Source: a bacterium (lineage in GTDB: Bacteria; Bdellovibrionota_C; UBA2361; CALJRW01). From it: a stretch of DNA of 46,205 nucleotides. Within the stretch, counting starts at the first letter, position 1. Each line of letters opens with the position of its first letter. This document shows, in pieces, positions 18,834-44,816 of this stretch. The DNA is taken from assembly GCA_031385045.1 (NCBI GenBank), contig JANNBC010000049.1:1-46205 (forward strand), given 5' to 3'. The notes under the pieces are model-generated. The model was given only the letters and a program-made list of their open reading frames with translations. It ran no database searches and was not told the origin of the DNA. Made by a program: the position numbers and the translations under genes.

Positions 18834-19571
18834 TTAATATTTATTGATAAAAATTACCTTAGAACGCCGAACTTTTACTTCCATACTATCTAAAAGTAAA
18901 AGTCGATATTCTGCCTGAAGCCGACTAGCAATAAGTGGATCGCTTTGTTCTTCTCTAGATTCATTTTTAACTTCCTCTGAATCCATAGACAGGGCAGTTA
19001 ATAAAGCTTTTTTTCGAAGCAGGAGTTCCAAGCCAAAAGCTAAAAAAATTAATAAAGATACCTGACCCATCAAATCATCAAAATCAATAAAAGTTTGCGC
19101 CACAGACTGATTCCAGTTAATCGGGATTACAATGGCAAATAAAATTAGCAAAGAAATAACTAAAATTAATTTCAATATTTCTTGTTTACCAGCAGTGACC
19201 CTAGCTCTCAAGTTATCTAAAGGATTAATTTTTCGCAGATCAAATAGTTTTTCTCTGATGGAGAATTGAAACCGACGTAAAAATAAATCAATTAAAACCA
19301 AAAAAATACTAGCAACTAGCATGGAACTAAATAATATTTGAAAAGATACCAAAATAATTCTTAAGAGCTCCTGAACATGCGGTGCTCCCAAGTTCCCTAG
19401 AATGGATTTTAACAAGATTTCAATCGTTACCCAATAGTGATTAAATTGGAGAAAAAGTAGATAGCCACTTAAAAGCAACAATAAGAGTCCTCGAGTTGTA
19501 AAATAATGTAAAAATTGACCATTTATACTGGCTTTCCTGAGCTTCTTACTACTTGCTGGGTGTTGTTTCAA
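18834..19571 (-). CDS. sctU: SctU/FlhB export-switch protein, N-terminal part only (TM plus CN)
   Basis: Start KQHPASSKKLRKAS..GQ; KINPL..L; MDSEEVKNE.REEQSDPLI; ends VRRSKVIFINKY* at the NPTH position. Confidence 0.8.
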   Translation of the reverse strand: MKQHPASSKKLRKASINGQFLHYFTTRGLLLLLLSGYLLFLQFNHYWVTIEILLKSILGNLGAPHVQELLRIILVSFQILFSSMLVASIFLVLIDLFLRRFQFSIREKLFDLRKINPLDNLRARVTAGKQEILKLILVISLLILFAIVIPINWNQSVAQTFIDFDDLMGQVSLLIFLAFGLELLLRKKALLTALSMDSEEVKNESREEQSDPLIASRLQAEYRLLLLDSMEVKVRRSKVIFINKY

Positions 19572-20230
19572 TGGAATACTCCCGATGTGATAAGTAGTAA
19601 AACAATCATTTTAATAAAAAAGATCTCACTAAAAAATGAGCACTGCGGGTATAATTTATTAACAAACATAAAAAATAGCTGGATCATCAAAAAGCAAAGA
19701 GCAATCGGAAAAATTAATTTAAAACCTAACTCTAAACTTTGAAGACACAAAGTTATACCCTCTTGCGCCAGTGCTTCCCAATTAGCAATCCTAGTCAGAC
19801 TAAGGACTATTTCTTGAATTAATTTTAATAAAAAATCTTGCTCTAGAAACATAACAAATAAAATAATTCGAACACCTTGCGCCAGTTGCTGACTAGAAAC
19901 AAAGTCATCTGAGCCAAAAAAGACGGCATAGTTCATACCTCGCAGGTTTTCTGTAACTTCAAAGAGAATGAGCAAGCTCCAAAACGAGAATAACAGAGTA
20001 AAACTGATTATTATTCCAATAATAAAATTGAGTCCTAAATTTAATTCTAACTGTGACAAATCAAAATTATTACCTAATAGATATCCACAAATGATCAGTG
20101 CAATCACACCTCTTCCCAAGAGACCTGAGACATTTAAGTTGTAAGGTAAGAGGATTAATGCACCCAAGACCCGAAAGTATACTGCTCCAAATTCTGGCAA
20201 CAAGCTTGCTAACAAATTAATTTCCCCCAA
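19568..20230 (-). CDS. sctT: SctT/FliR export-gate protein (divergent, short)
   Basis: Hydrophobic; FRV.G...LLP, IIG, K.YPQ...F; position between sctS and sctU. Confidence 0.7.
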   Translation of the reverse strand: MGEINLLASLLPEFGAVYFRVLGALILLPYNLNVSGLLGRGVIALIICGYLLGNNFDLSQLELNLGLNFIIGIIISFTLLFSFWSLLILFEVTENLRGMNYAVFFGSDDFVSSQQLAQGVRIILFVMFLEQDFLLKLIQEIVLSLTRIANWEALAQEGITLCLQSLELGFKLIFPIALCFLMIQLFFMFVNKLYPQCSFFSEIFFIKMIVLLLITSGVFH

Positions 20231-20477
20231 TTATAATTATCTGTTCCAAGCAAGATTGAATAAAATTAATAAAGTTTAAATTCCAACTTGGGAAAAAAAC
20301 TAGAATTGCAATTGCAGCAACTGTTATCTTAATCAAATAAAGTAAAGTCTGTTCCTGAACTTGAAATAACGAGAAGATAAAATTAAATGCAAAACTGATA
20401 ATGGCCACGAATCCTAATGGCCAAATCAATCCCCAAAGTAAAAGGTTAATTGTTTGACCAAGCAGATTAGTAAACAT
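20217..20477 (-). CDS. sctS: SctS/FliQ export-gate protein
   Basis: 86 aa, two TM segments, QVQEQTL..LIK motif. Confidence 0.85.
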   Translation of the reverse strand: MFTNLLGQTINLLLWGLIWPLGFVAIISFAFNFIFSLFQVQEQTLLYLIKITVAAIAILVFFPSWNLNFINFIQSCLEQIIIIGGN

Positions 20478-20478
20478 T

Positions 20479-21126
20479 TTAGTCGTAGGATAAAATAAGT
20501 GACTTAATAATTAGTTGCCAAAAATCAAGTCCGACAATTAAAATTATTTTTAAGGGCAAGGAAAGTAAGACTGGACTAAACATCATCATCCCTAGCCCCG
20601 CAAGTAAATTAGCGATTAAGAAATCAATAATTAAAAATGGTAACAGTACCATTAGTCCCATTTGGAAGGCCTCCTTTAATTCACTTAATAAGAAAGCTGT
20701 TAATGTTGTTGCAAAATTATTTTTGGTTTCATCCGTCTCCCTTTGGCTCTTAGCTAATAAACTTGCTAGAAAATGAAGTTCTTCTTCTCCCGCATGCTGG
20801 CTAATAAACTCTTTCCAGGGCTGAGTGATTAGTGCTGATTTATTGATTAATTCCGACAAGGATAGTTTTTCTAATTTAGTATTTAGTAGATCGCTAGACT
20901 GTAAATAGCTACTTGTCTGATCCCAAACTGGCTCCATCACCATTAGGCTAATAGCCAAAGAGAGGATTCCAATAATAATTCCAGATGGCACCTGTTGAGC
21001 ACCAATCGCATTTTTAAAAAGATTTAATACAATATTAATTTTTAAATAGGCAGTTCCAATAACAACTAAAAAAGGAAGGAGCGCTAGTGCTAGAGAAATC
21101 AGCAATAGATTAAAATTATTGTTCAT
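20479..21126 (-). CDS. sctR: SctR/FliP export-gate protein
   Basis: LALLPF...T...KI.IVL...NAIG.QQVP; AFLLSELKEAFQMG; LPFLIID; LGMMM.SP..SLPLK; no FliP-type signal peptide. Confidence 0.92.
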   Translation of the reverse strand: MNNNFNLLLISLALALLPFLVVIGTAYLKINIVLNLFKNAIGAQQVPSGIIIGILSLAISLMVMEPVWDQTSSYLQSSDLLNTKLEKLSLSELINKSALITQPWKEFISQHAGEEELHFLASLLAKSQRETDETKNNFATTLTAFLLSELKEAFQMGLMVLLPFLIIDFLIANLLAGLGMMMFSPVLLSLPLKIILIVGLDFWQLIIKSLILSYD

Positions 21127-21920
21127 AATTTTATTTCAGCAGATTCAATTTGAAAACTAAGATAGCCAAGATCTTTAAGTGCCGACTGTAAATAAACGCG
21201 TTGTGAGAGCCACCAACTTAGATTTTCTAAATTATCAATTTTAATTGATAAATTTCCCAAATTATCGAGTGCTAAACCAAATGCTTGTTGGCCCTGAACT
21301 TTAGATTGATATTTTAAATCTAAGCCCTTCTGCTCTAAATTATCCCAGACTGTTAAATGCTTTTCATGGCAGTCCCTTTGCTCTTCCCATTTCTCTGCTT
21401 TCGTTAAATTACAATGGGGGAAATTGCTCGAAAACTCTTGAAAGCTGCTGGATTCAATTAAACTGCGGGAAGCTCCTTGCGTTACCTCAACCTCTTCTAA
21501 TTGTTTTAAAGATAAACTAACTCTCTTTTCGGAAGTTAAATCTAAGTATTTCCTGCTATCAGCCGGCAAAATCGTAATTTTTTCACTTAGCAGATTCTTT
21601 TCAAATAACCTGTTTACTGGCAATGGTTGATAAATATTGGAATCCACAACAGACTCTCTGTATAAGGGTGATTGTGGATAAAAATTATTAGAAGTTCTTA
21701 CTCGAGGATCAATGCTTGGGGCTGACATTCTAGCAAAGCTTACATGCTCTAGCTTACAAGCTGGAGTTGCAGAAGTTAAGTTGCTTATTAATCGAGTTAC
21801 TAAATTTGAGAAATCTTTAATCCTTACTCTGCTATTACCCTCTGTAGTCTTTAAAGTATTAGCAGAGACAGAACTTAGCCCAGAAAGATTTACGTTTGAA
21901 TTTAGTTGATTTGCCTTCAC
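21123..21920 (-). CDS. Hypothetical protein, possibly SctP/FliK-like
   Basis: In the T3SS operon; Ser-rich low-complexity body; C-terminus L.I.I....L.WW......LQSALKDLGY..FQI resembles a T3S4 domain. Confidence 0.35.
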   Translation of the reverse strand: MKANQLNSNVNLSGLSSVSANTLKTTEGNSRVRIKDFSNLVTRLISNLTSATPACKLEHVSFARMSAPSIDPRVRTSNNFYPQSPLYRESVVDSNIYQPLPVNRLFEKNLLSEKITILPADSRKYLDLTSEKRVSLSLKQLEEVEVTQGASRSLIESSSFQEFSSNFPHCNLTKAEKWEEQRDCHEKHLTVWDNLEQKGLDLKYQSKVQGQQAFGLALDNLGNLSIKIDNLENLSWWLSQRVYLQSALKDLGYLSFQIESAEIKL

Positions 21921-22711: not shown

Positions 22712-22974
22712 TGCCTATCATTCTCTACGAGAATGATATCCGAGATACGACTTCCAGGAAGTCGTATTTACGATCATATTCCCTTCGGAAATATATGCAC
22801 TCAACAAAATCAATGCCTATCATTCTCTACGAGAATGATATCCGAAATGCGACTTCTAGGAAGTCGCATTTACGATCATATTCCCTCCGGGAATTATATG
22901 CACTCAACAAAATTAATGCCCATAATTCCCTACAGGAATTATATACACTCACTACTCCAAGGGAGTAGTGAGTG
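22712..22974. repeat. Tandem ~102-bp repeat (2 copies plus a partial) made of serial palindromic hairpins
   Basis: Units start at 22712, 22814 and 22917. Hairpins: TATCATTCTC-tac-GAGAATGATA, ATACGACTTC-cag-GAAGTCGTAT / ATGCGACTTC-tag-GAAGTCGCAT, CACTCACTACTCC-aag-GGAGTAGTGAGTG. Confidence 0.92.
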
Positions 22975-23056
22975 CCCGAAAGAGGACTTGAACCTCCACG
23001 ACCTTGCGATCACCAGACCCTTAATCTGGCGTGTCTACCAATTCCACCATTCGGGC
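22973..23056 (-). tRNA. tRNA-Leu(AAG)
   Basis: GCCCGAATGGTGGAATTGGTAGACACG-CCAGA-TTAAGGG-TCTGG-long variable arm-GGAGGTTCAAGTCCTC-TTTCGGGC-A; CCA not encoded; follows secG. Confidence 0.95.
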
Positions 23057-37736: not shown

Positions 37737-40034
37737 TTACATTCTATCTGGAACCGTTATCCCAAGTAGGCTTAATCCTTGATTAAGAGTTTTACTAACT
37801 GCTTGACTAAACATAATCCGGTGCCCACTAAGTTCTAGATCCTCGGAGACAACTCGGTTATTGGCATAATAGGAATTAAACATTTTTGATAACTCATGAA
37901 GGTATGTACAGATATGATTAGTCTTAAAAGTCTGACATACTTCGAGTGTCATGGCATTAAACTCATTTAGTTTAAACAAAATTAATTTTTCCTCATCAGT
38001 CATTCTTTCCTGATTAAAGTATGGCTTGATACCAATTGATTCTGCTTTTTTTAACAGAGAACTAATCCTTACAGAACAGTATTGAATATATGGCCCTGAC
38101 TCACCATCAAGCTTTAACCATTCCTCCAAATCAAAAACTACCTTGGAGCTAGGTTCATATCGATTCATTGCATATTTAATTGCTCCAGCAGCTATTAAAT
38201 CAGCAGTCTTAAGGATCTCATCCTTTGGCCATTCTTCCGAGTATTTATTTAAAAAACTCGTAGTAATATAATCTCGCATTCCATTAATTAAAGAACTAAT
38301 TGGAACAATATTACCCTTCCTAGAACTCATTGCTCCATCCGGAAGCTCTACAAAATTATAAGGCAGATGAAAACAATCACCAGCATGTTCATACCCTAGC
38401 TTATCAAGAACTTTAAAAATTTGCTTAAAGTGATGTGCTTGGCGCAAATCAACTAGATAAATACTTTTATCTAGTTGATGATCATCAAACTTTTTCTTTG
38501 CTAAATACAAATCCTTACTACTATACATACCATTTCCATCAGACTTTAGGAGCATACAAAAACCTAAGTTATCCTCTGTTAAATCCATTCCAACGGCACC
38601 TTCTGATGAAACTAATTTCCCTTGGGCATATAAATCTTTAACTAAATTAACAGAAGCACTATCAACATCCGATTCCCAATACCAGGTATCAAACTTTATT
38701 CCTGACCAATTATAAGCTTCTTCCATTTGATCTATGGACCATTCCCTAGTCTCCTTCCAAAGCTCATAATACTCACCTTTTTGTTGTTCCAACTCTCTTA
38801 GGATTTGCGTTAAGATTTTAGCAGTCTTTTCACTTTCGGGAGTTTCTGCTTCGGCTTCGATTTGAGTATTAGCTTTCGTATAGAGTGCCCCTAACCACAC
38901 ACCTTTTTTGGATTCCGGTACAGGTTCTTGATTATGATTTTTTAAATACCATAGACACTTTGCGACATGTGTTCCAACATCACCTGGGAAGGTTGATGTT
39001 ACAGTAGGAACTCCCACATATTTAAATGTTAAGGCTAAAGACCCGCCTAAACAAATATTACGCATGTGCCCAACATGTAATTCTTTATGAGTATTTGGTT
39101 GAGAAAACTCCAACATGATCTGAGGAGGCATAAATAATAGTTGGCGACTAAAATAATCTTCCGAAATTATCGGAGTCAGAATTTGATCATTTACAAACTT
39201 CTTATTCAAACGAAAATTGATAAAAGGCCCAATATTTTCGATACTTTGAGCGAAAGTTAAAGGTACTTCTTCAGCGACCCTCTTGGCAAATTCGACTGGA
39301 TTAATCCCAAGTTTTTTTGATATAGCAAAAGCTGGCAAGGCTAAGTCACCATGACTCTTCTCTTTAGGAATTGACAACAGATGATAAATTTCACTTTGAT
39401 ATTCTAAGAGGTTAGCACTTTGGACTAATCCAATATTAATCAAACCAGTCACAATTCCGTAAGCAACATTTGACCTTAATTGATCAAATTGCAATTCTTG
39501 CGCGACAGACCCATTAAGTGGATAGCCTAATTTACGAGCTGGAAATGTTCCAGAGTTTAGATTTAAATCCATCTGGATATGAGGTAACCCAGCATCGTCG
39601 AAGACATCTCCTTTTTCTTTAAATCCAAGCTTTTCATAAAAATCTTTAGAAGCATATTGCGCTGCTAAAGTTGCCTTTGAAAAACCATTGTTTTTTCCAA
39701 AGTCGATTGCAGACTTGATCAGCTTACTAGCGTAGCCTTTATTTCTAAAATCTTTATCAACACAAAGTCGACCAATATTGATACAGCCTGGCTCTTTAGA
39801 GTAGATTCTTAAGCATGCTACAAGCTTTTCACCTTCAGACAAATAAAGATGTACTGCTTTAGGATCTAAGGAGTCTACTTCAAGTTCTAGCGGTACTTTT
39901 TGTTCTTGAACAAAAACTTGCTTGCGGAGATCTAAGATTGCTTGATAATGTTGAGGATCGCGCGTTGGTACACAGATTTTAATAGGCAAATCTGTTTTCA
40001 CAGTTTTTGGAGTATAAACTTCTTGCTGCATCAT
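37737..40034 (-). CDS. argS: GNAT acetyltransferase (ElaA/YjcF-like) fused to arginyl-tRNA synthetase
   Basis: About aa 1-160: LR..VFV.EQ.VP, IGRLCV, R.KG.A, AQ....FYEKLGF, DAGLPH. Then HGD, GPFINF, EFSQPNTHKELHVGH (HIGH), MSSRKG, GPYIQY, terminal RM. Confidence 0.95.
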   Translation of the reverse strand: MMQQEVYTPKTVKTDLPIKICVPTRDPQHYQAILDLRKQVFVQEQKVPLELEVDSLDPKAVHLYLSEGEKLVACLRIYSKEPGCINIGRLCVDKDFRNKGYASKLIKSAIDFGKNNGFSKATLAAQYASKDFYEKLGFKEKGDVFDDAGLPHIQMDLNLNSGTFPARKLGYPLNGSVAQELQFDQLRSNVAYGIVTGLINIGLVQSANLLEYQSEIYHLLSIPKEKSHGDLALPAFAISKKLGINPVEFAKRVAEEVPLTFAQSIENIGPFINFRLNKKFVNDQILTPIISEDYFSRQLLFMPPQIMLEFSQPNTHKELHVGHMRNICLGGSLALTFKYVGVPTVTSTFPGDVGTHVAKCLWYLKNHNQEPVPESKKGVWLGALYTKANTQIEAEAETPESEKTAKILTQILRELEQQKGEYYELWKETREWSIDQMEEAYNWSGIKFDTWYWESDVDSASVNLVKDLYAQGKLVSSEGAVGMDLTEDNLGFCMLLKSDGNGMYSSKDLYLAKKKFDDHQLDKSIYLVDLRQAHHFKQIFKVLDKLGYEHAGDCFHLPYNFVELPDGAMSSRKGNIVPISSLINGMRDYITTSFLNKYSEEWPKDEILKTADLIAAGAIKYAMNRYEPSSKVVFDLEEWLKLDGESGPYIQYCSVRISSLLKKAESIGIKPYFNQERMTDEEKLILFKLNEFNAMTLEVCQTFKTNHICTYLHELSKMFNSYYANNRVVSEDLELSGHRIMFSQAVSKTLNQGLSLLGITVPDRM

Positions 40035-40063: not shown

Positions 40064-41068
40064 CTAGGAAATATTTGATAATGAATCATAATATTCAAAA
40101 GCTAATTGAAGTTTATTAGCACAATCAAATATTTCACTTAAACGAACATGCTCATTCTCAGTATGAGCATCATTAATTGTCCCTGGCCCAATCATAATCA
40201 CAGTATATAACTTTGAAAAAGCAAAACAATCAGAACAAAAATCTACATCAGTCCCAATATACCCTTTGGGCACAGAAAAGTTTAAAGGTGGAATTGATTG
40301 CGAAACGACAACCAAGCCAGATTGATTTAAGATATCTTCTATTTGCTGAATGACTTGCTCCGGTGCAATCTTTGTTCGAATACATAACCAAGCCTTACAA
40401 TTAGGAGATTGAACATTAGGAGCTAATCCCCCCTCAATCTTCCCTACATTGATATAGAAATCTGAATTTTTTTCAACGGCAACTAGTAAATGATTTAACT
40501 GACCAATCATTTGATGAATGGCACTATGATTAATCCGAGTGCAGGAATGTCTGGACTCCGCTTGAATCTCAAAAAGCACCTCAATTACACCCTTACTGGA
40601 ACTTACAAATTGGCATTCAGTAGGCTCTCCGTTGATCAGATATTTTGCATTGATCGGATTATTATCCATATAATGCTGCGAGCCAATACCATCAACTTCT
40701 TCCCCAATTACATAAACAAAGCCTAAATCCTTAGCACCCGCTCGAGATAAATCATAGATTGCTGACAGTTGTGTTATTATCTGCCCCTTGGCATCGCATG
40801 ATCCCCGACCATAAATTAAATCTGATTCAACACGAACTTCAGGACCACCGGGAACAGTATCAAAATGAGAACTAAAAATAACTTTTGGGTTACCTAATTT
40901 TCCAATTACATTAAAACGATTTTTATCGATCTCTTGAAGTGAAAGCGAGAAGTCCGGGAAAAATCTCTTAATCATGTCAACTAAATAGATACCAGCGCGG
41001 TACTCATTCCCAGTGAATGATTCAACCTTTAAAAAATTTAATAAATTATTTTGAAGATCTGGTAACAT
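40064..41068 (-). CDS. M20-family metallo-amidohydrolase (ArgE/DapE-like)
   Basis: SHFDTV, GRGSCDAKG, GEE, GEPT, N.G.IEGG.APN, AHTENE. Confidence 0.9.
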   Translation of the reverse strand: MLPDLQNNLLNFLKVESFTGNEYRAGIYLVDMIKRFFPDFSLSLQEIDKNRFNVIGKLGNPKVIFSSHFDTVPGGPEVRVESDLIYGRGSCDAKGQIITQLSAIYDLSRAGAKDLGFVYVIGEEVDGIGSQHYMDNNPINAKYLINGEPTECQFVSSSKGVIEVLFEIQAESRHSCTRINHSAIHQMIGQLNHLLVAVEKNSDFYINVGKIEGGLAPNVQSPNCKAWLCIRTKIAPEQVIQQIEDILNQSGLVVVSQSIPPLNFSVPKGYIGTDVDFCSDCFAFSKLYTVIMIGPGTINDAHTENEHVRLSEIFDCANKLQLAFEYYDSLSNIS

Positions 41069-42713
41069 TTGATTTAATTAAAAAATTATTGATTACCAAG
41101 TAATTTAAAGGTGATTTTAAAAAACATTGGATCGCCTCCATTGGAGTTTCGACAATCGGCTCGCCTTGACCATTCATTGATGTATTTAAAATTATAGGTA
41201 CATTTGTTAACTCATTAATTGTAAATATCAGCTTATAAATTTTAGGATTATCAATTCTATTAATAGTTTGCAATCTAGCTGTTTGATCACAATGTACAAT
41301 AGCAGGTGCTTGCTCTAGAGTTCTAGATTTAACTTTGGGTGATAATAACATGAAGGGAGATGTTTGATTTAATTCAAAAAAATCCTGGGCAAACTCTTCT
41401 AGAACCATCGGTGCCAGCGGCCTAAAAGATTCTCGAAACTTAACAGAGGAATTAATAAAATCCTTGGTTGAGACTTGGACTGGGCTTGCAAGGATACTTC
41501 GATGCCCCAGTGCTCGTGGTCCAATCTCAGCCCCACCATTAAACCACATCACAATTTCTCCCGCAGCTATTAATTCCGCTACATCCTTAATTAATTTATC
41601 CTCACTTAAACTTTGGAAAGTAAGATTTTGTTCTGATTGTCTTAGGGAATTAGTAATTTCTAAATCGCTATAAGATCTTCCCCAAAAGGCATGTTTAATT
41701 TCCTGCCGAGGAAAATCATAGATCTGATGTGACAAATAATATCCTGCCCCAAAAGCAATACCATTATCTCCTGCTGCCGGAAAAACAAAAACTTTCTTAA
41801 AATTCGTTGCCTCCAAAATCTTGGCATTAGCAACACAATTTAAAGCAACACCTCCAGCTAAACATATTGTTTCCGTCGGGTATAACTTATATAAACATTG
41901 GCAATAATAAAAAATAATCTCCTCTAAAACTTTTTGGAAAGAAGAAGCAATATTTGCCGACTCCTCAAACTCTCCGCCACAAGACTTTAAATGCTTTAAT
42001 GATTCCCAGAGTAATCCATTCTTGATTAAGACCGCATTCTCTCTAAATTGTACATGTTTTAAAATTTGCTCCCGATAGATTGGCTGACCATAGCCAGCAA
42101 GCCCCATCGTCTTACCTTCTTCTAATACTCCAAAACCAGATAATAGGGTTCCAATCCGATAGAAAACTCCTAAAGAATTCTGCATATCAAAATATGAACT
42201 TACTTTACCTGTAATCACTTTTGTATCTACAATTTTATTCTTTAATCCGTAGCCTAATAAAACAGTTTCATAGATATTTTGATCTACTGAATCTCCGTAG
42301 CCATCTGTAACTAGGATCGCGGCATCTTCTGCTCCAGAGGGGAAAAATGCCGAGGCAGCGTGAGCGAGATGATGATTAATAAAAAGTGATTTTTGAGGAT
42401 AAGGTAAAAAGTTATGAAGAGAGTTACCAATTAATATTCGGTCTTGATTAATATTAACAGATGCCGCCTCCAGACAATATTTAATTAAAGGATCCAGTCT
42501 AGACTCAGATAAAGAAGCTGAGTCAGATTCCAAATTCATTTTCGCAAAAATCTCCGGATCAAATTTAGAATAATTACCAATGTCTAAACCATGCTTAACC
42601 CTTGTTAATCGCTCTTCTTCGATAGCAACTATTGGTTGACCATCTTTAAATAGACAGACCGTCCGATCATGTAAAGAATCACTAAATCCAATAAAAATAT
42701 TCTTGGTATTCAT
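41046..42713 (-). CDS. NodU/CmcH/TobZ-family carbamoyltransferase
   Basis: HD, EEERL.R.K, HHLAHAASAF, DGYG, EGKTMGLA.YG, AGGVALNC, D.G, E.GPRALG.RS, K.RE.FRP.AP, H.D.TAR.QT, LNTS.N..GEP. Confidence 0.95.
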   Translation of the reverse strand: MNTKNIFIGFSDSLHDRTVCLFKDGQPIVAIEEERLTRVKHGLDIGNYSKFDPEIFAKMNLESDSASLSESRLDPLIKYCLEAASVNINQDRILIGNSLHNFLPYPQKSLFINHHLAHAASAFFPSGAEDAAILVTDGYGDSVDQNIYETVLLGYGLKNKIVDTKVITGKVSSYFDMQNSLGVFYRIGTLLSGFGVLEEGKTMGLAGYGQPIYREQILKHVQFRENAVLIKNGLLWESLKHLKSCGGEFEESANIASSFQKVLEEIIFYYCQCLYKLYPTETICLAGGVALNCVANAKILEATNFKKVFVFPAAGDNGIAFGAGYYLSHQIYDFPRQEIKHAFWGRSYSDLEITNSLRQSEQNLTFQSLSEDKLIKDVAELIAAGEIVMWFNGGAEIGPRALGHRSILASPVQVSTKDFINSSVKFRESFRPLAPMVLEEFAQDFFELNQTSPFMLLSPKVKSRTLEQAPAIVHCDQTARLQTINRIDNPKIYKLIFTINELTNVPIILNTSMNGQGEPIVETPMEAIQCFLKSPLNYLVINNFLIKSNVTRSSK

Positions 42714-43741
42714 TAATAGTAAGATATTAGATAGGGGTTATCAGGGAGTAAAAATTGACTTGGTGGCTCCTTGGTAAGAACAGCTGTCCGACTAAGTAAT
42801 CTATCAGTGCCATCATACCTTGGAGTAAAGCTAGTTCTAGCATGGACTGAATTACTATTATTAATTAGTAGTAGATCGCCAACCTGCAAGGTTAATTCGA
42901 AGGCATTATCATTGAGATGTTGGTGTAATATTTTTAATGCATTAAAGGCTTCTAGATTATGAACTTTAGTAAATAGCGGATCAAATCTCATTTTAATTCT
43001 ATCAGGATTTGATAAGTCTAAGACAGGAAATGTTATGCCAGAACTAATGTTATCGACTGAGGAGTCCGGTAACATTGTATAATGGTTTCCTTCCAGTATA
43101 CTAATTATTTCTCGATCAATTTTAGAAAGATCTATTGTGCTTAACAGTGTCTTAGCCCGATCGTCCCCTCTAACACAAAATAATTCAATCCAATCACAAT
43201 TCACAGGAGAATGGGCATCCTCTGAATGCCAAAGTAAATCTACCGAGTTAGTTCCAACCTGTTCTGTGGATGTCTCAATTTTAGGAGTTAAGGTTTGAAT
43301 GACTGCACCATTGCGTTGACCAATATAACCATAAGGCCGACCAATTGTTAGTGCCATTGAAAAGACAATTAAATTACTTAATTGCATCAATTCTTTTTCC
43401 GTCCCTATTCCCTGACCAAAACCCCTAATTAAAAAGAAACCACTTTCCTTTTGTGATGTAGCTTTTTTGCCCAGAGTATCAATAACATTTAGGAAGTCTG
43501 ACATTTTTGAAAAAAGAAGATTTTCTAATAATTTTAGATCTTTAGAATTATTATAATCAATATCTAATGAAACCAGAGATAAGGCATTATTGATAATGGC
43601 AATCTCTGCTGAGCTAAGAATATATAATGAGCTACTGAATTTTTTTAAGATATCGTTTTGAGCAGTGAATGTATCAGGCAAATATGGGATGAAAGAATAA
43701 GTACTTCCCTGAATTTCACCAAACTTAGAAGTGGAAATCAT
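42713..43741 (-). CDS. Clavaminate synthase-like Fe(II)/2-oxoglutarate dioxygenase (VioC/AsnO/KDO type)
   Basis: LLWHSEDAH (HxE), L.GD.L.I.N...VHAR..F.PRYDG.DR.L.R. Confidence 0.9.
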   Translation of the reverse strand: MISTSKFGEIQGSTYSFIPYLPDTFTAQNDILKKFSSSLYILSSAEIAIINNALSLVSLDIDYNNSKDLKLLENLLFSKMSDFLNVIDTLGKKATSQKESGFFLIRGFGQGIGTEKELMQLSNLIVFSMALTIGRPYGYIGQRNGAVIQTLTPKIETSTEQVGTNSVDLLWHSEDAHSPVNCDWIELFCVRGDDRAKTLLSTIDLSKIDREIISILEGNHYTMLPDSSVDNISSGITFPVLDLSNPDRIKMRFDPLFTKVHNLEAFNALKILHQHLNDNAFELTLQVGDLLLINNSNSVHARTSFTPRYDGTDRLLSRTAVLTKEPPSQFLLPDNPYLISYY

Positions 43742-43874
43742 TGTCCTGTGAATATATTAATTATTAGGATCTAAAGTCAATAAAAATCTTTATGTTCCTT
43801 TTTTGCAACAAATACCTAACTTATTTGGTTATTAGTGAAAAAATGACATCTGAAAGGAGCAAACAAGTTGGAAT

Positions 43875-44276: not shown

Positions 44277-44816
44277 TTATTTTGTTAGTGCATAACACAT
44301 AGAATCTCTTGGAATCTTAGGATCTATATTTGGTCGAACCTTCCATCGTTTTAAAATACCTTCGAATTTTAATCCAATTTTTTCAAGAACTTTTGCTGAG
44401 GATTGATGCTCAGAATCACAGACTGTCCAAACACGATAAATTTCTGGATTAGAAATAGCTAAATCCACTATTGCAGAAGCAGCTTCTGTGGCAAAGCCAT
44501 TACCCCAATATTTTTTTGCAACGGCAAAACCAATTGTAGCAGAACAATTATTGGGAATTAACGAAACAACTCCAACAGGTAGATTCTCAGTTTTTGAGAT
44601 AATTAAATATTCAAACCACTCACCCAATTCCCATGACTTTTCGGCTTCAGATAAATATTGGATTGTGTCTTCCAGTGTTTTTGGCGGAAGCCAAGCCACA
44701 TAACGATTAATTTCTGGATCAGTTGAATAACTAAAAACAAAATCTGCGTCTTCTTTTTTAATACGGCGCAATACTAACCTAGTGGTAGAAATTTCAGAAG
44801 GAAATATTTTACTCAT
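44277..44816 (-). CDS. RimJ/RimL-family GNAT acetyltransferase
   Basis: T.RL.LR....D, IG......WGNGFATEA, S.KVLEKIG..FEG..R. Confidence 0.9.
   Translation of the reverse strand: MSKIFPSEISTTRLVLRRIKKEDADFVFSYSTDPEINRYVAWLPPKTLEDTIQYLSEAEKSWELGEWFEYLIISKTENLPVGVVSLIPNNCSATIGFAVAKKYWGNGFATEAASAIVDLAISNPEIYRVWTVCDSEHQSSAKVLEKIGLKFEGILKRWKVRPNIDPKIPRDSMCYALTK

Follow-up and report, generated by a model that had tools for sequence, protein, structure and literature searches.

The fusion gene

The window analysed here is the whole stretch of 46,205 nucleotides of contig JANNBC010000049.1, from a bacterium of the Bdellovibrionota_C lineage. On its minus strand, positions 37737..40034 hold one open reading frame of 765 amino acids without internal stop, in which a GNAT acetyltransferase domain precedes a full arginyl-tRNA synthetase (ArgRS), the second ArgRS of this genome; the longest stop-free run in 500 nucleotide shuffles had a mean of 59 codons and a maximum of 124. 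Translation, Pfam, TIGR00456 and a structure model bore out the initial annotation, which had read a single ORF of this length joining a GNAT to a complete ArgRS with HVGH and MSSRKG motifs. The YjcF/ElaA-type GNAT domain (approximately residues 18-158, 39561..39983, minus strand) is matched by Acetyltransf_10/_1/_7/_9 at residues 28-158, and its loop at residues 97-103 is presumably the acetyl-CoA motif. Its closest solved structures are SACOL1063 (E 2e-19), 1q2y (YjcF), ElaA and PA0115, and a complete GNAT fold was predicted, the GNAT part of the model reaching a TMt of 0.91 against SACOL1063. The earlier label "ElaA/YjcF-like" holds as far as these nearest structures are concerned, but the domain is not ElaA itself, scoring 48.1 against the ElaA equivalog PRK10314, whose cut-off is 171. 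GNATs of the YjcF/SACOL1063/ElaA kind resemble the fused domain in sequence and fold but normally stand alone at about 145 aa, and a literature search found no substrate for them.

The ArgRS part (37740..39482, minus strand) is of a Bdellovibrionota-related type and has the N-terminal, catalytic and DALR domains, matched by Arg_tRNA_synt_N at residues 213-276, tRNA-synt_1d at 305-623 and DALR_1 at 650-765. HVGH lies at 320-323 and MSSRKG at 569-574, and the score of 354.9 bits against TIGR00456 (argS) is above the equivalog cut-off of 261.65. The protein has E309, N314, Y504, D508 and Q532 at what we take to be the positions of the arginine pocket. Residues 159-184 (39483..39560, minus strand) form the joint between the two parts. 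Residues 169-184 or so are matched in the alignment by the N-terminal extension found in unfused sister ArgRSs, which leaves a true joint of only about 10 residues in place of the linker of about 20 residues first proposed. The AlphaFold2 model of the fusion, built from an alignment of 40 rows of which 5 were fused, had a pLDDT of 91.2 and a pTM of 0.91.

The fusion is genuine. An assembly artefact was ruled out by the coverage of the junction in contigs from a second study and by the same architecture in two other protein clusters. Contigs of run X2, which belongs to that different study, cover the junction with no listed indels. None of the pieces listed extends over the entire ORF; the one at 38093-39549 differs by 1 letter, and a low-depth contig has three differences at 39571-39607, all missense and none a stop. 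The stop or frameshift in the linker that the initial annotation had allowed for was thus found in none of the X2 contigs covering the junction, and the fusion is not, as it had also allowed, unique to this assembly, being present in P0002 and P0003.

The fusion is also very rare. GNAT and ArgRS families occurred together in 3 of the best 120 of 1885 matches, namely the query, P0002 (61% identity) and P0003 (56%), the latter two being clusters of two members each (P0002/P0121 and P0003/P0122). Among the matches listed from a search of 1.84 billion representatives, P0003 was the only one to extend across the GNAT and the N-domain at E < 1e-30, and the other 149 matched the GNAT only. No match spanning both domains was among those listed for 123 other genomes of the host class, and no further fusion was among the matches listed in a scan of genome contigs. 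The metagenome scan gave 24 loci without a fusion, the motif of the fusion clade had 0 matches in genome and viral contigs, the region search returned the query itself only, and the Atlas held plain ArgRS clusters, at 0.80.

Such rarity would suit an incidental read-through product, in which a general YjcF-type acetyltransferase came to be joined to a horizontally acquired ArgRS and the two domains are functionally unlinked. YjcF-type GNATs are indeed fused to many partners, including a cysteine desulfurase (P0170), an M20 hydrolase 42% identical to that of the window (P0190) and other GNATs in tandem, and among the fusions the GNAT part diverges faster (38-47% identity) than the ArgRS part (61-68%). 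However, the fusion has been kept in three clusters, and the fused GNATs form one clade (support 0.87) as do the fused ArgRSs (support 1.0), which suggests a single origin on both trees. Unfused GNAT and ArgRS genes also co-occur in two homologous operons described below (L203 and L207), and the pTM suggests, as a prediction, a defined packing of the chain. We consider an accidental joining quite improbable. The 145-aa Bacteriovoracaceae GNAT that lies at argS or one gene before it in 12 of 80 loci was rejected as the source of the fused domain, as its identity of 19-27% places it with the most distant of the GNATs compared.

The operon ending in the fusion

Three genes, a context that the initial annotation had overlooked, precede the fusion on the same strand, in the order oxygenase, carbamoyltransferase, M20 hydrolase and GNAT-ArgRS, with gaps of -1, -23 and 29 bp. 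The first (42713..43741, minus strand, 342 aa) encodes an OrfP/VioC/KDO1-like Fe(II)/2OG amino-acid oxygenase with H172-x-E174 and H300 and overlaps the next gene by 1 bp. The second (41046..42713, minus strand, 555 aa) encodes a TobZ/NodU/CmcH-type carbamoyltransferase and overlaps by 23 bp the third (40064..41068, minus strand, 334 aa), which encodes an ArgE/LysK-like N-acyl-amino-acid deacylase of the M20 family and ends 29 bp before the fusion. A sigma-70-like site with 10/12 matches lies directly before the oxygenase gene (43751..43780, minus strand), and the scan for such sites gave no excess, 24 sites against 30.8 in shuffles. A RimJ/RimL-type GNAT of 179 aa is encoded 535 bp upstream (44277..44816, minus strand); its membership of the module is uncertain, and it was not found in three homologous operons. 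GC and GC3 of the operon are no different from those of host genes. No empty site was found, the best PMT_2 locus of a genus-mate not being syntenic. Arginine synthesis does not call for the operon, since argG, two OTCase-family genes and carB are also present in the host.

The model of the oxygenase, with a pLDDT of 67.8 and residues 1-99 unreliable, matches the folds of OrfP, AsnO, KDO1 and VioC. At the positions of its Gln161, Gly163 and Leu256, OrfP shows Gln, Gly and Tyr, and VioC and CmnC show Leu, Ser and Asp; the window protein is without the second acidic residue, as are OrfP-type enzymes by comparison with PMC9513391. The same source states that OrfP acts on L-Arg, D-Arg, homoarginine and canavanine. 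These residues point to a free basic amino acid as the probable substrate of the window enzyme without fixing which one. It shares its fold, iron triad and OrfP-type pocket residues with the OrfP/VioC/CmnC/KDO1 hydroxylases, but it falls below the NCBIfam cut-offs (GntD, 130 against 345; VioC, 114 against 419) and its operon has no PLP cyclase or NRPS. In the carbamoyltransferase both Pfam domains and the metal-site residues are present; its score is below the NodU equivalog cut-off, and its closest structures are NovN, GdmN and TobZ.

The initial annotation had also suggested that the GNAT may act on Arg-tRNA, citing TacT/AtaT. In such a role it would acetylate the charged arginine and thereby stall translation or remove mischarged tRNA, and its N-terminal attachment beside the domain that binds tRNA would place it well for this. 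But TacT/AtaT toxins have an adjacent ribbon-helix-helix antitoxin, whereas the neighbours of the fusion are the M20 hydrolase gene upstream and a convergent PMT_2 gene on the other side, with no antitoxin gene adjacent. The closest structures are of YjcF/SACOL1063/ElaA type, and for a synthetase to acetylate its own product would presumably be futile unless the reaction were selective for an analogue. This role is highly improbable.

The spare synthetase and the recurrence of its gene set

The host genome (94.9% complete) encodes another ArgRS of 579 aa on contig C54, 26-27% identical to the fused ArgRS. It is 80% identical to the single ArgRS of the genus-mate G001 and groups with it, and judging from this grouping C54 carries the housekeeping copy and the fused ArgRS is the spare one. 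In G001 neither the oxygenase nor, at 1e-35, the M20 enzyme had a match. In the ArgRS tree of 46 rows, the clade of the fused ArgRS and its unfused sisters adjoins the Bdellovibrio- and Bacteriovorax-type enzymes.

The four-enzyme operon is apparently undescribed, and its core also occurs in very distant bacteria. The oxygenase, carbamoyltransferase and M20 genes recur in three Patescibacteria-type genomes of 1.1-1.4 Mb (loci L203, L207 and L293), each time beside an extra ArgRS, and these genomes have 2, 2 and 3 ArgRS loci, respectively. Identity to the window genes is 50-54% for the carbamoyltransferase, 35-37% for the M20 protein and 27-42% for the oxygenase. L203 has the oxygenase, carbamoyltransferase, M20 and ArgRS genes followed by a convergent GNAT gene and carAB; L207 has ArgRS, oxygenase, carbamoyltransferase, methyltransferase, M20 and GNAT genes. 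The GNAT is thus a separate gene in both. L207 is labelled Peribacteria, L293 Saccharimonadales and L203 Nevskiaceae; despite this label the L203 genome probably groups with L293, partly on the evidence of its ArgRS. As in the host, the cluster synthetase of all three genomes is duplicated elsewhere in the genome, and the cluster ArgRSs of the recurring loci are 52-58% identical to the other copies in their own genomes. The cluster ArgRSs fall on three separate branches, with 24-28% identity from one branch to another, which means that on more than one occasion the enzyme trio has joined an ArgRS available locally. The L207 locus is weakened as evidence because G934 has a 76%-identical orthologue of its ArgRS without the module in 16 kb.

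All five functions were found in 2 of 80 M20 loci. The module was carried by 3 of 34 carbamoyltransferase loci, those of L203, L207 and L293 with 50-53% identity, and by 0 of the 31 weaker ones, some of them on short contigs and two without an ORF match. Within a 401-genome sample of the phylum of G125, the carbamoyltransferase subfamily was present only in G125 (1104 bits against at most 391), and argS, carbamoyltransferase or M20 genes stood near 0 of 12 distant oxygenases in that sample, several of them on short contigs. Five viral loci matched the carbamoyltransferase alignment, all without the module, and the best plasmid match adjoins a 2OG oxygenase gene of another kind, in a stretch without an annotated argS. 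The oxygenase was found neither in the single-protein scan nor in viral contigs. When relatives of it were sought to accompany other fusions, 2454 candidates gave 2 word-based matches, one of them the query, and no close one. At least two DALR matches were found in 6 of the 115 host-class genomes with a match (124 searched), in 3 of 57 around G124 (61 searched, two of them unpublished single-copy genomes) and in 4 of 39 around G125 (41 searched), these background counts including the cluster genomes themselves. In G124, carAB adjoins the cluster, and neither OTCase/ATCase nor ArgG was found in this incomplete genome; this fits a supply of carbamoyl phosphate to the predicted pathway. No small ORF is common to the loci.

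Proposed self-protection and competing explanations

Most probably the fusion guards translation against an arginine mimic that the operon either produces or processes. The explanation that we favour, at about an even chance, is that a mobile operon makes an antimetabolite of the O-carbamoyl-hydroxy-arginine type and that the fusion at its end serves self-protection. It starts from the observed domain content, the operon coupling, the separate housekeeping ArgRS and the repeated occurrence of these genes together with extra ArgRSs that differ in ancestry; every chemical step is inferred from family membership. The oxygenase would hydroxylate a free basic amino acid, most likely arginine, and the carbamoyltransferase would O-carbamoylate the new hydroxyl, using carbamoyl phosphate and ATP. 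The GNAT would acetylate the alpha-amine of the analogue or of an intermediate with acetyl-CoA, so that it is neither activated by ArgRS nor able to block it, and the M20 enzyme would strip the acetyl group so that the analogue is released or recycled. The spare ArgRS, of a structural type unlike the host enzyme, would keep tRNA-Arg charged. Fusion of two neighbouring genes of the module would fix their co-expression and may place the GNAT near the target. The module seems to matter more than the tether, because the GNAT is separate in two operons and is fused to the M20 enzyme in P0190.

Several observations count against a self-protective function. The arginine-pocket motifs of the fused ArgRS differ from those of the host enzyme but are the same as in single-copy Bdellovibrio-type ArgRSs within its clade, which leaves no resistance substitution to be seen. 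G014 and G078, 2 of the 4 genomes of the class with the oxygenase, have a single ArgRS each; in G014 this sole ArgRS belongs to the fused type, and the oxygenase ORF is missing its N-terminal part. The module of L293 is without a YjcF-type GNAT, and the cluster GNATs did not group in a tree of 142 columns; when 166 GNATs were ranked by identity to the fused one, they came 20th, 30th and 144th. Tiny Patescibacteria are not known to make antibiotics.

A serious if lesser possibility is that the module serves defence or salvage, that is, it neutralises or recovers arginine analogues from outside, such as D-Arg, canavanine or N-acyl-Arg, or answers poor charging of tRNA-Arg. The GNAT and M20 enzymes would then mask and unmask amines, the oxygenase and carbamoyltransferase would disarm the analogue, and the spare ArgRS would be a back-up. 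The OrfP-type residues of the window oxygenase suit this, as OrfP takes D-Arg, homoarginine and canavanine (PMC9513391). So do locus L344, in which GNAT-M20-GNAT-M20 stands before a second ArgRS without oxygenase or carbamoyltransferase, and the window operon, in which no exporter gene was seen. Short ORFs with Arg codons also lie upstream of the cluster argS in L293 (5 Arg codons) and L203 (3) and were absent at the 2 housekeeping copies checked. But the leader folds of L293 and L203 were no better than shuffles (z -0.01 and -0.40), the two leaders align poorly with each other, and the window operon is preceded by no Rfam switch or Arg-rich leader that the searches could find; inducible expression of argS would be compatible with self-protection and defence alike. 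The module also has no racemase. Besides consuming ATP and carbamoyl phosphate, O-carbamoylation is a typical biosynthetic reaction, as the closest structures of the carbamoyltransferase (NovN, GdmN, TobZ) would suggest here.

The spare ArgRS might instead be a biosynthetic enzyme, charging arginine or hydroxy-arginine to tRNA as the donor of an amide step, much like SerRS in the valanimycin pathway. A preprint (10.64898/2025.12.02.691738) gives this as one role open to additional synthetases of gene clusters, the arginine pocket of the fused ArgRS is unaltered, and the GNATs of P0190 and L207 gave weak FeeM matches, below the cut-off or marginal. However, no aminoacyl-tRNA transferase family was found among the scanned genes of the window, L203 and L207 operons, the fused GNAT is single-domain with a CoA-bound nearest structure, and no tRNA gene lies within the clusters. 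A donor role of this kind seems rather remote.

A variant nearer to the initial annotation is that the GNAT, docked on the ArgRS as the pTM of 0.91 would suggest, acts in cis as an acetyl-CoA-dependent proofreader, capping a mis-activated or tRNA-bound arginine analogue within an uncharted pathway common to the host lineage and Patescibacteria. ArgRS is not known to have an editing domain, so this would be a new proofreading chemistry; we regard it as unlikely. The initial annotation had proposed that the GNAT may edit or detoxify an arginine analogue at the synthetase. The analogue part gains indirect support, as the acetyl-CoA motif is kept and a spare ArgRS closes an operon of enzymes that modify arginine-type compounds, but the GNAT need not act at the synthetase, since it is encoded separately in two homologous operons and is part of an M20 fusion in P0190.

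As for the self-protection that we prefer, this kind of immunity is already known. In tiarin (trifolitoxin-like) clusters, the GNAT TfxH and a cluster-encoded ArgRS each confer immunity, TfxH by acetylating the Arg-led warhead and the ArgRS by resisting it (main text of 10.64898/2025.12.02.691738). There, as in the window, a GNAT and a second ArgRS stand beside a biosynthetic operon and the housekeeping ArgRS lies elsewhere, but here the two proteins are one chain and the enzymes are modifiers of free amino acids; the words 'fused' and 'carbamoyl' are absent from the main text of that preprint. No RiPP machinery or precursor was called in the window operon, whose gene families are TauD, carbamoyltransferase and M20, and by its gene content it is not a tiarin cluster. 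The carbamoylpolyoxamic-acid pathway of polyoxin, whose PolL is treated in PMC11611013, likewise arrives at a carbamoylated amino acid by way of a carbamoyltransferase, a 2OG hydroxylase and a cycle of acetylation. The window operon differs in having no kinase, reductase or nucleoside part. No ArgRS is known from the polyoxin pathway. A GNAT joined to a class I synthetase has a precedent in NCBIfam NF040702 (ileS_w_GNAT), but the synthetase is IleRS; in the window this family matched the RimJ-type protein and did not match the fusion, and no operon link is known for it.

The fusion is therefore real and rare and marks an apparently undescribed module, since no description of either was found in the searched literature, which covered few subscription papers. 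If the preferred reading is true, these four enzymes would point to a new natural product that mimics arginine and is directed at ArgRS, a target that antibiotics rarely use; the two proteins conferring immunity would form a single chain. The YjcF/ElaA GNATs, about which little is known, would also gain a substrate that can be tested, and ultra-small Patescibacteria would seem to make or neutralise antimetabolites. Such an oxygenase is paired with an ArgRS in two further cluster types, one with oxygenase-methyltransferase-SDR-AMP-binding-AsnB (L128 and L178), in which the L128 ArgRS belongs to the sister clade of the fusion, and one with oxygenase and nucleotidyltransferase-PLP decarboxylase (L345). 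The pairing of a clavaminate-synthase-like oxygenase with an extra ArgRS, seen here in three cluster types, is a usable rule for genome mining.

Other gene clusters with an extra ArgRS

A second type of cluster, in which the clavaminate-synthase-like oxygenase is accompanied by methyltransferase-like, SDR, AMP-binding and AsnB-like genes and an ArgRS, was found at two comparison loci (L128:1092-10292 and L178:8792-17004), and the oxygenase gene of L128 is interrupted by a transposase element. In genome G126, the third ArgRS is preceded by a TauD-family oxygenase and by a protein that joins a Pol-beta nucleotidyltransferase to a PLP decarboxylase (L345:5305-10276). The second ArgRS of genome G177 is the last gene of a GNAT-M20-GNAT-M20 operon (L344:8984-14726), and that of genome G117 lies between genes for a methyltransferase-like protein, a PLP aminotransferase and a PALP-family protein (L341:3-5747). 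Upstream of the cluster argS in two of the small Patescibacteria-type genomes, a short Arg-rich ORF, a hairpin and a pyrimidine run were present (L293:5500-5552 and L203:11077-11154), and these are possible leader-peptide attenuators.

ArgRSs with N-terminal additions and GNATs near argS

At L397-L405 (relatives of genome G125), L340 and L207, the ArgRS carries a long addition at its N-terminus and measures 836-978 aa. The domain scan of the L397-L405 set called a B3/4 domain in six of the eight long ArgRSs scanned, and the same domain was called at L340:3146-5797 and in the cut ORF at L207:13964-14922. Because B3/4 proteins include a canavanyl-tRNA deacylase, these long B3/4-bearing enzymes may be editing-domain ArgRSs.

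In Bacteriovorax-type genomes, a conserved GNAT of 145 aa is located at argS or one gene upstream at 12 loci (L034, L038, L043, L046, L053, L057, L059, L060, L062, L063, L073 and L075). In one protein, P0170, a YjcF-type GNAT is joined to a cysteine desulfurase.

Other features of the window

A tRNA-Leu with a called AAG anticodon is encoded on the minus strand at 22972-23056; A34 is uncommon in bacterial leucine tRNAs, and none of the 34 tRNAs identified in the host genome is a Leu-GAG tRNA. At the contig end (45196-45982), the domain calls gave a Gp49/DUF891 gene and an HTH gene, which form a toxin-antitoxin-like pair. By eye, a few short divergent genes at 18834-21920 resemble parts of a flagellar or type III export apparatus.
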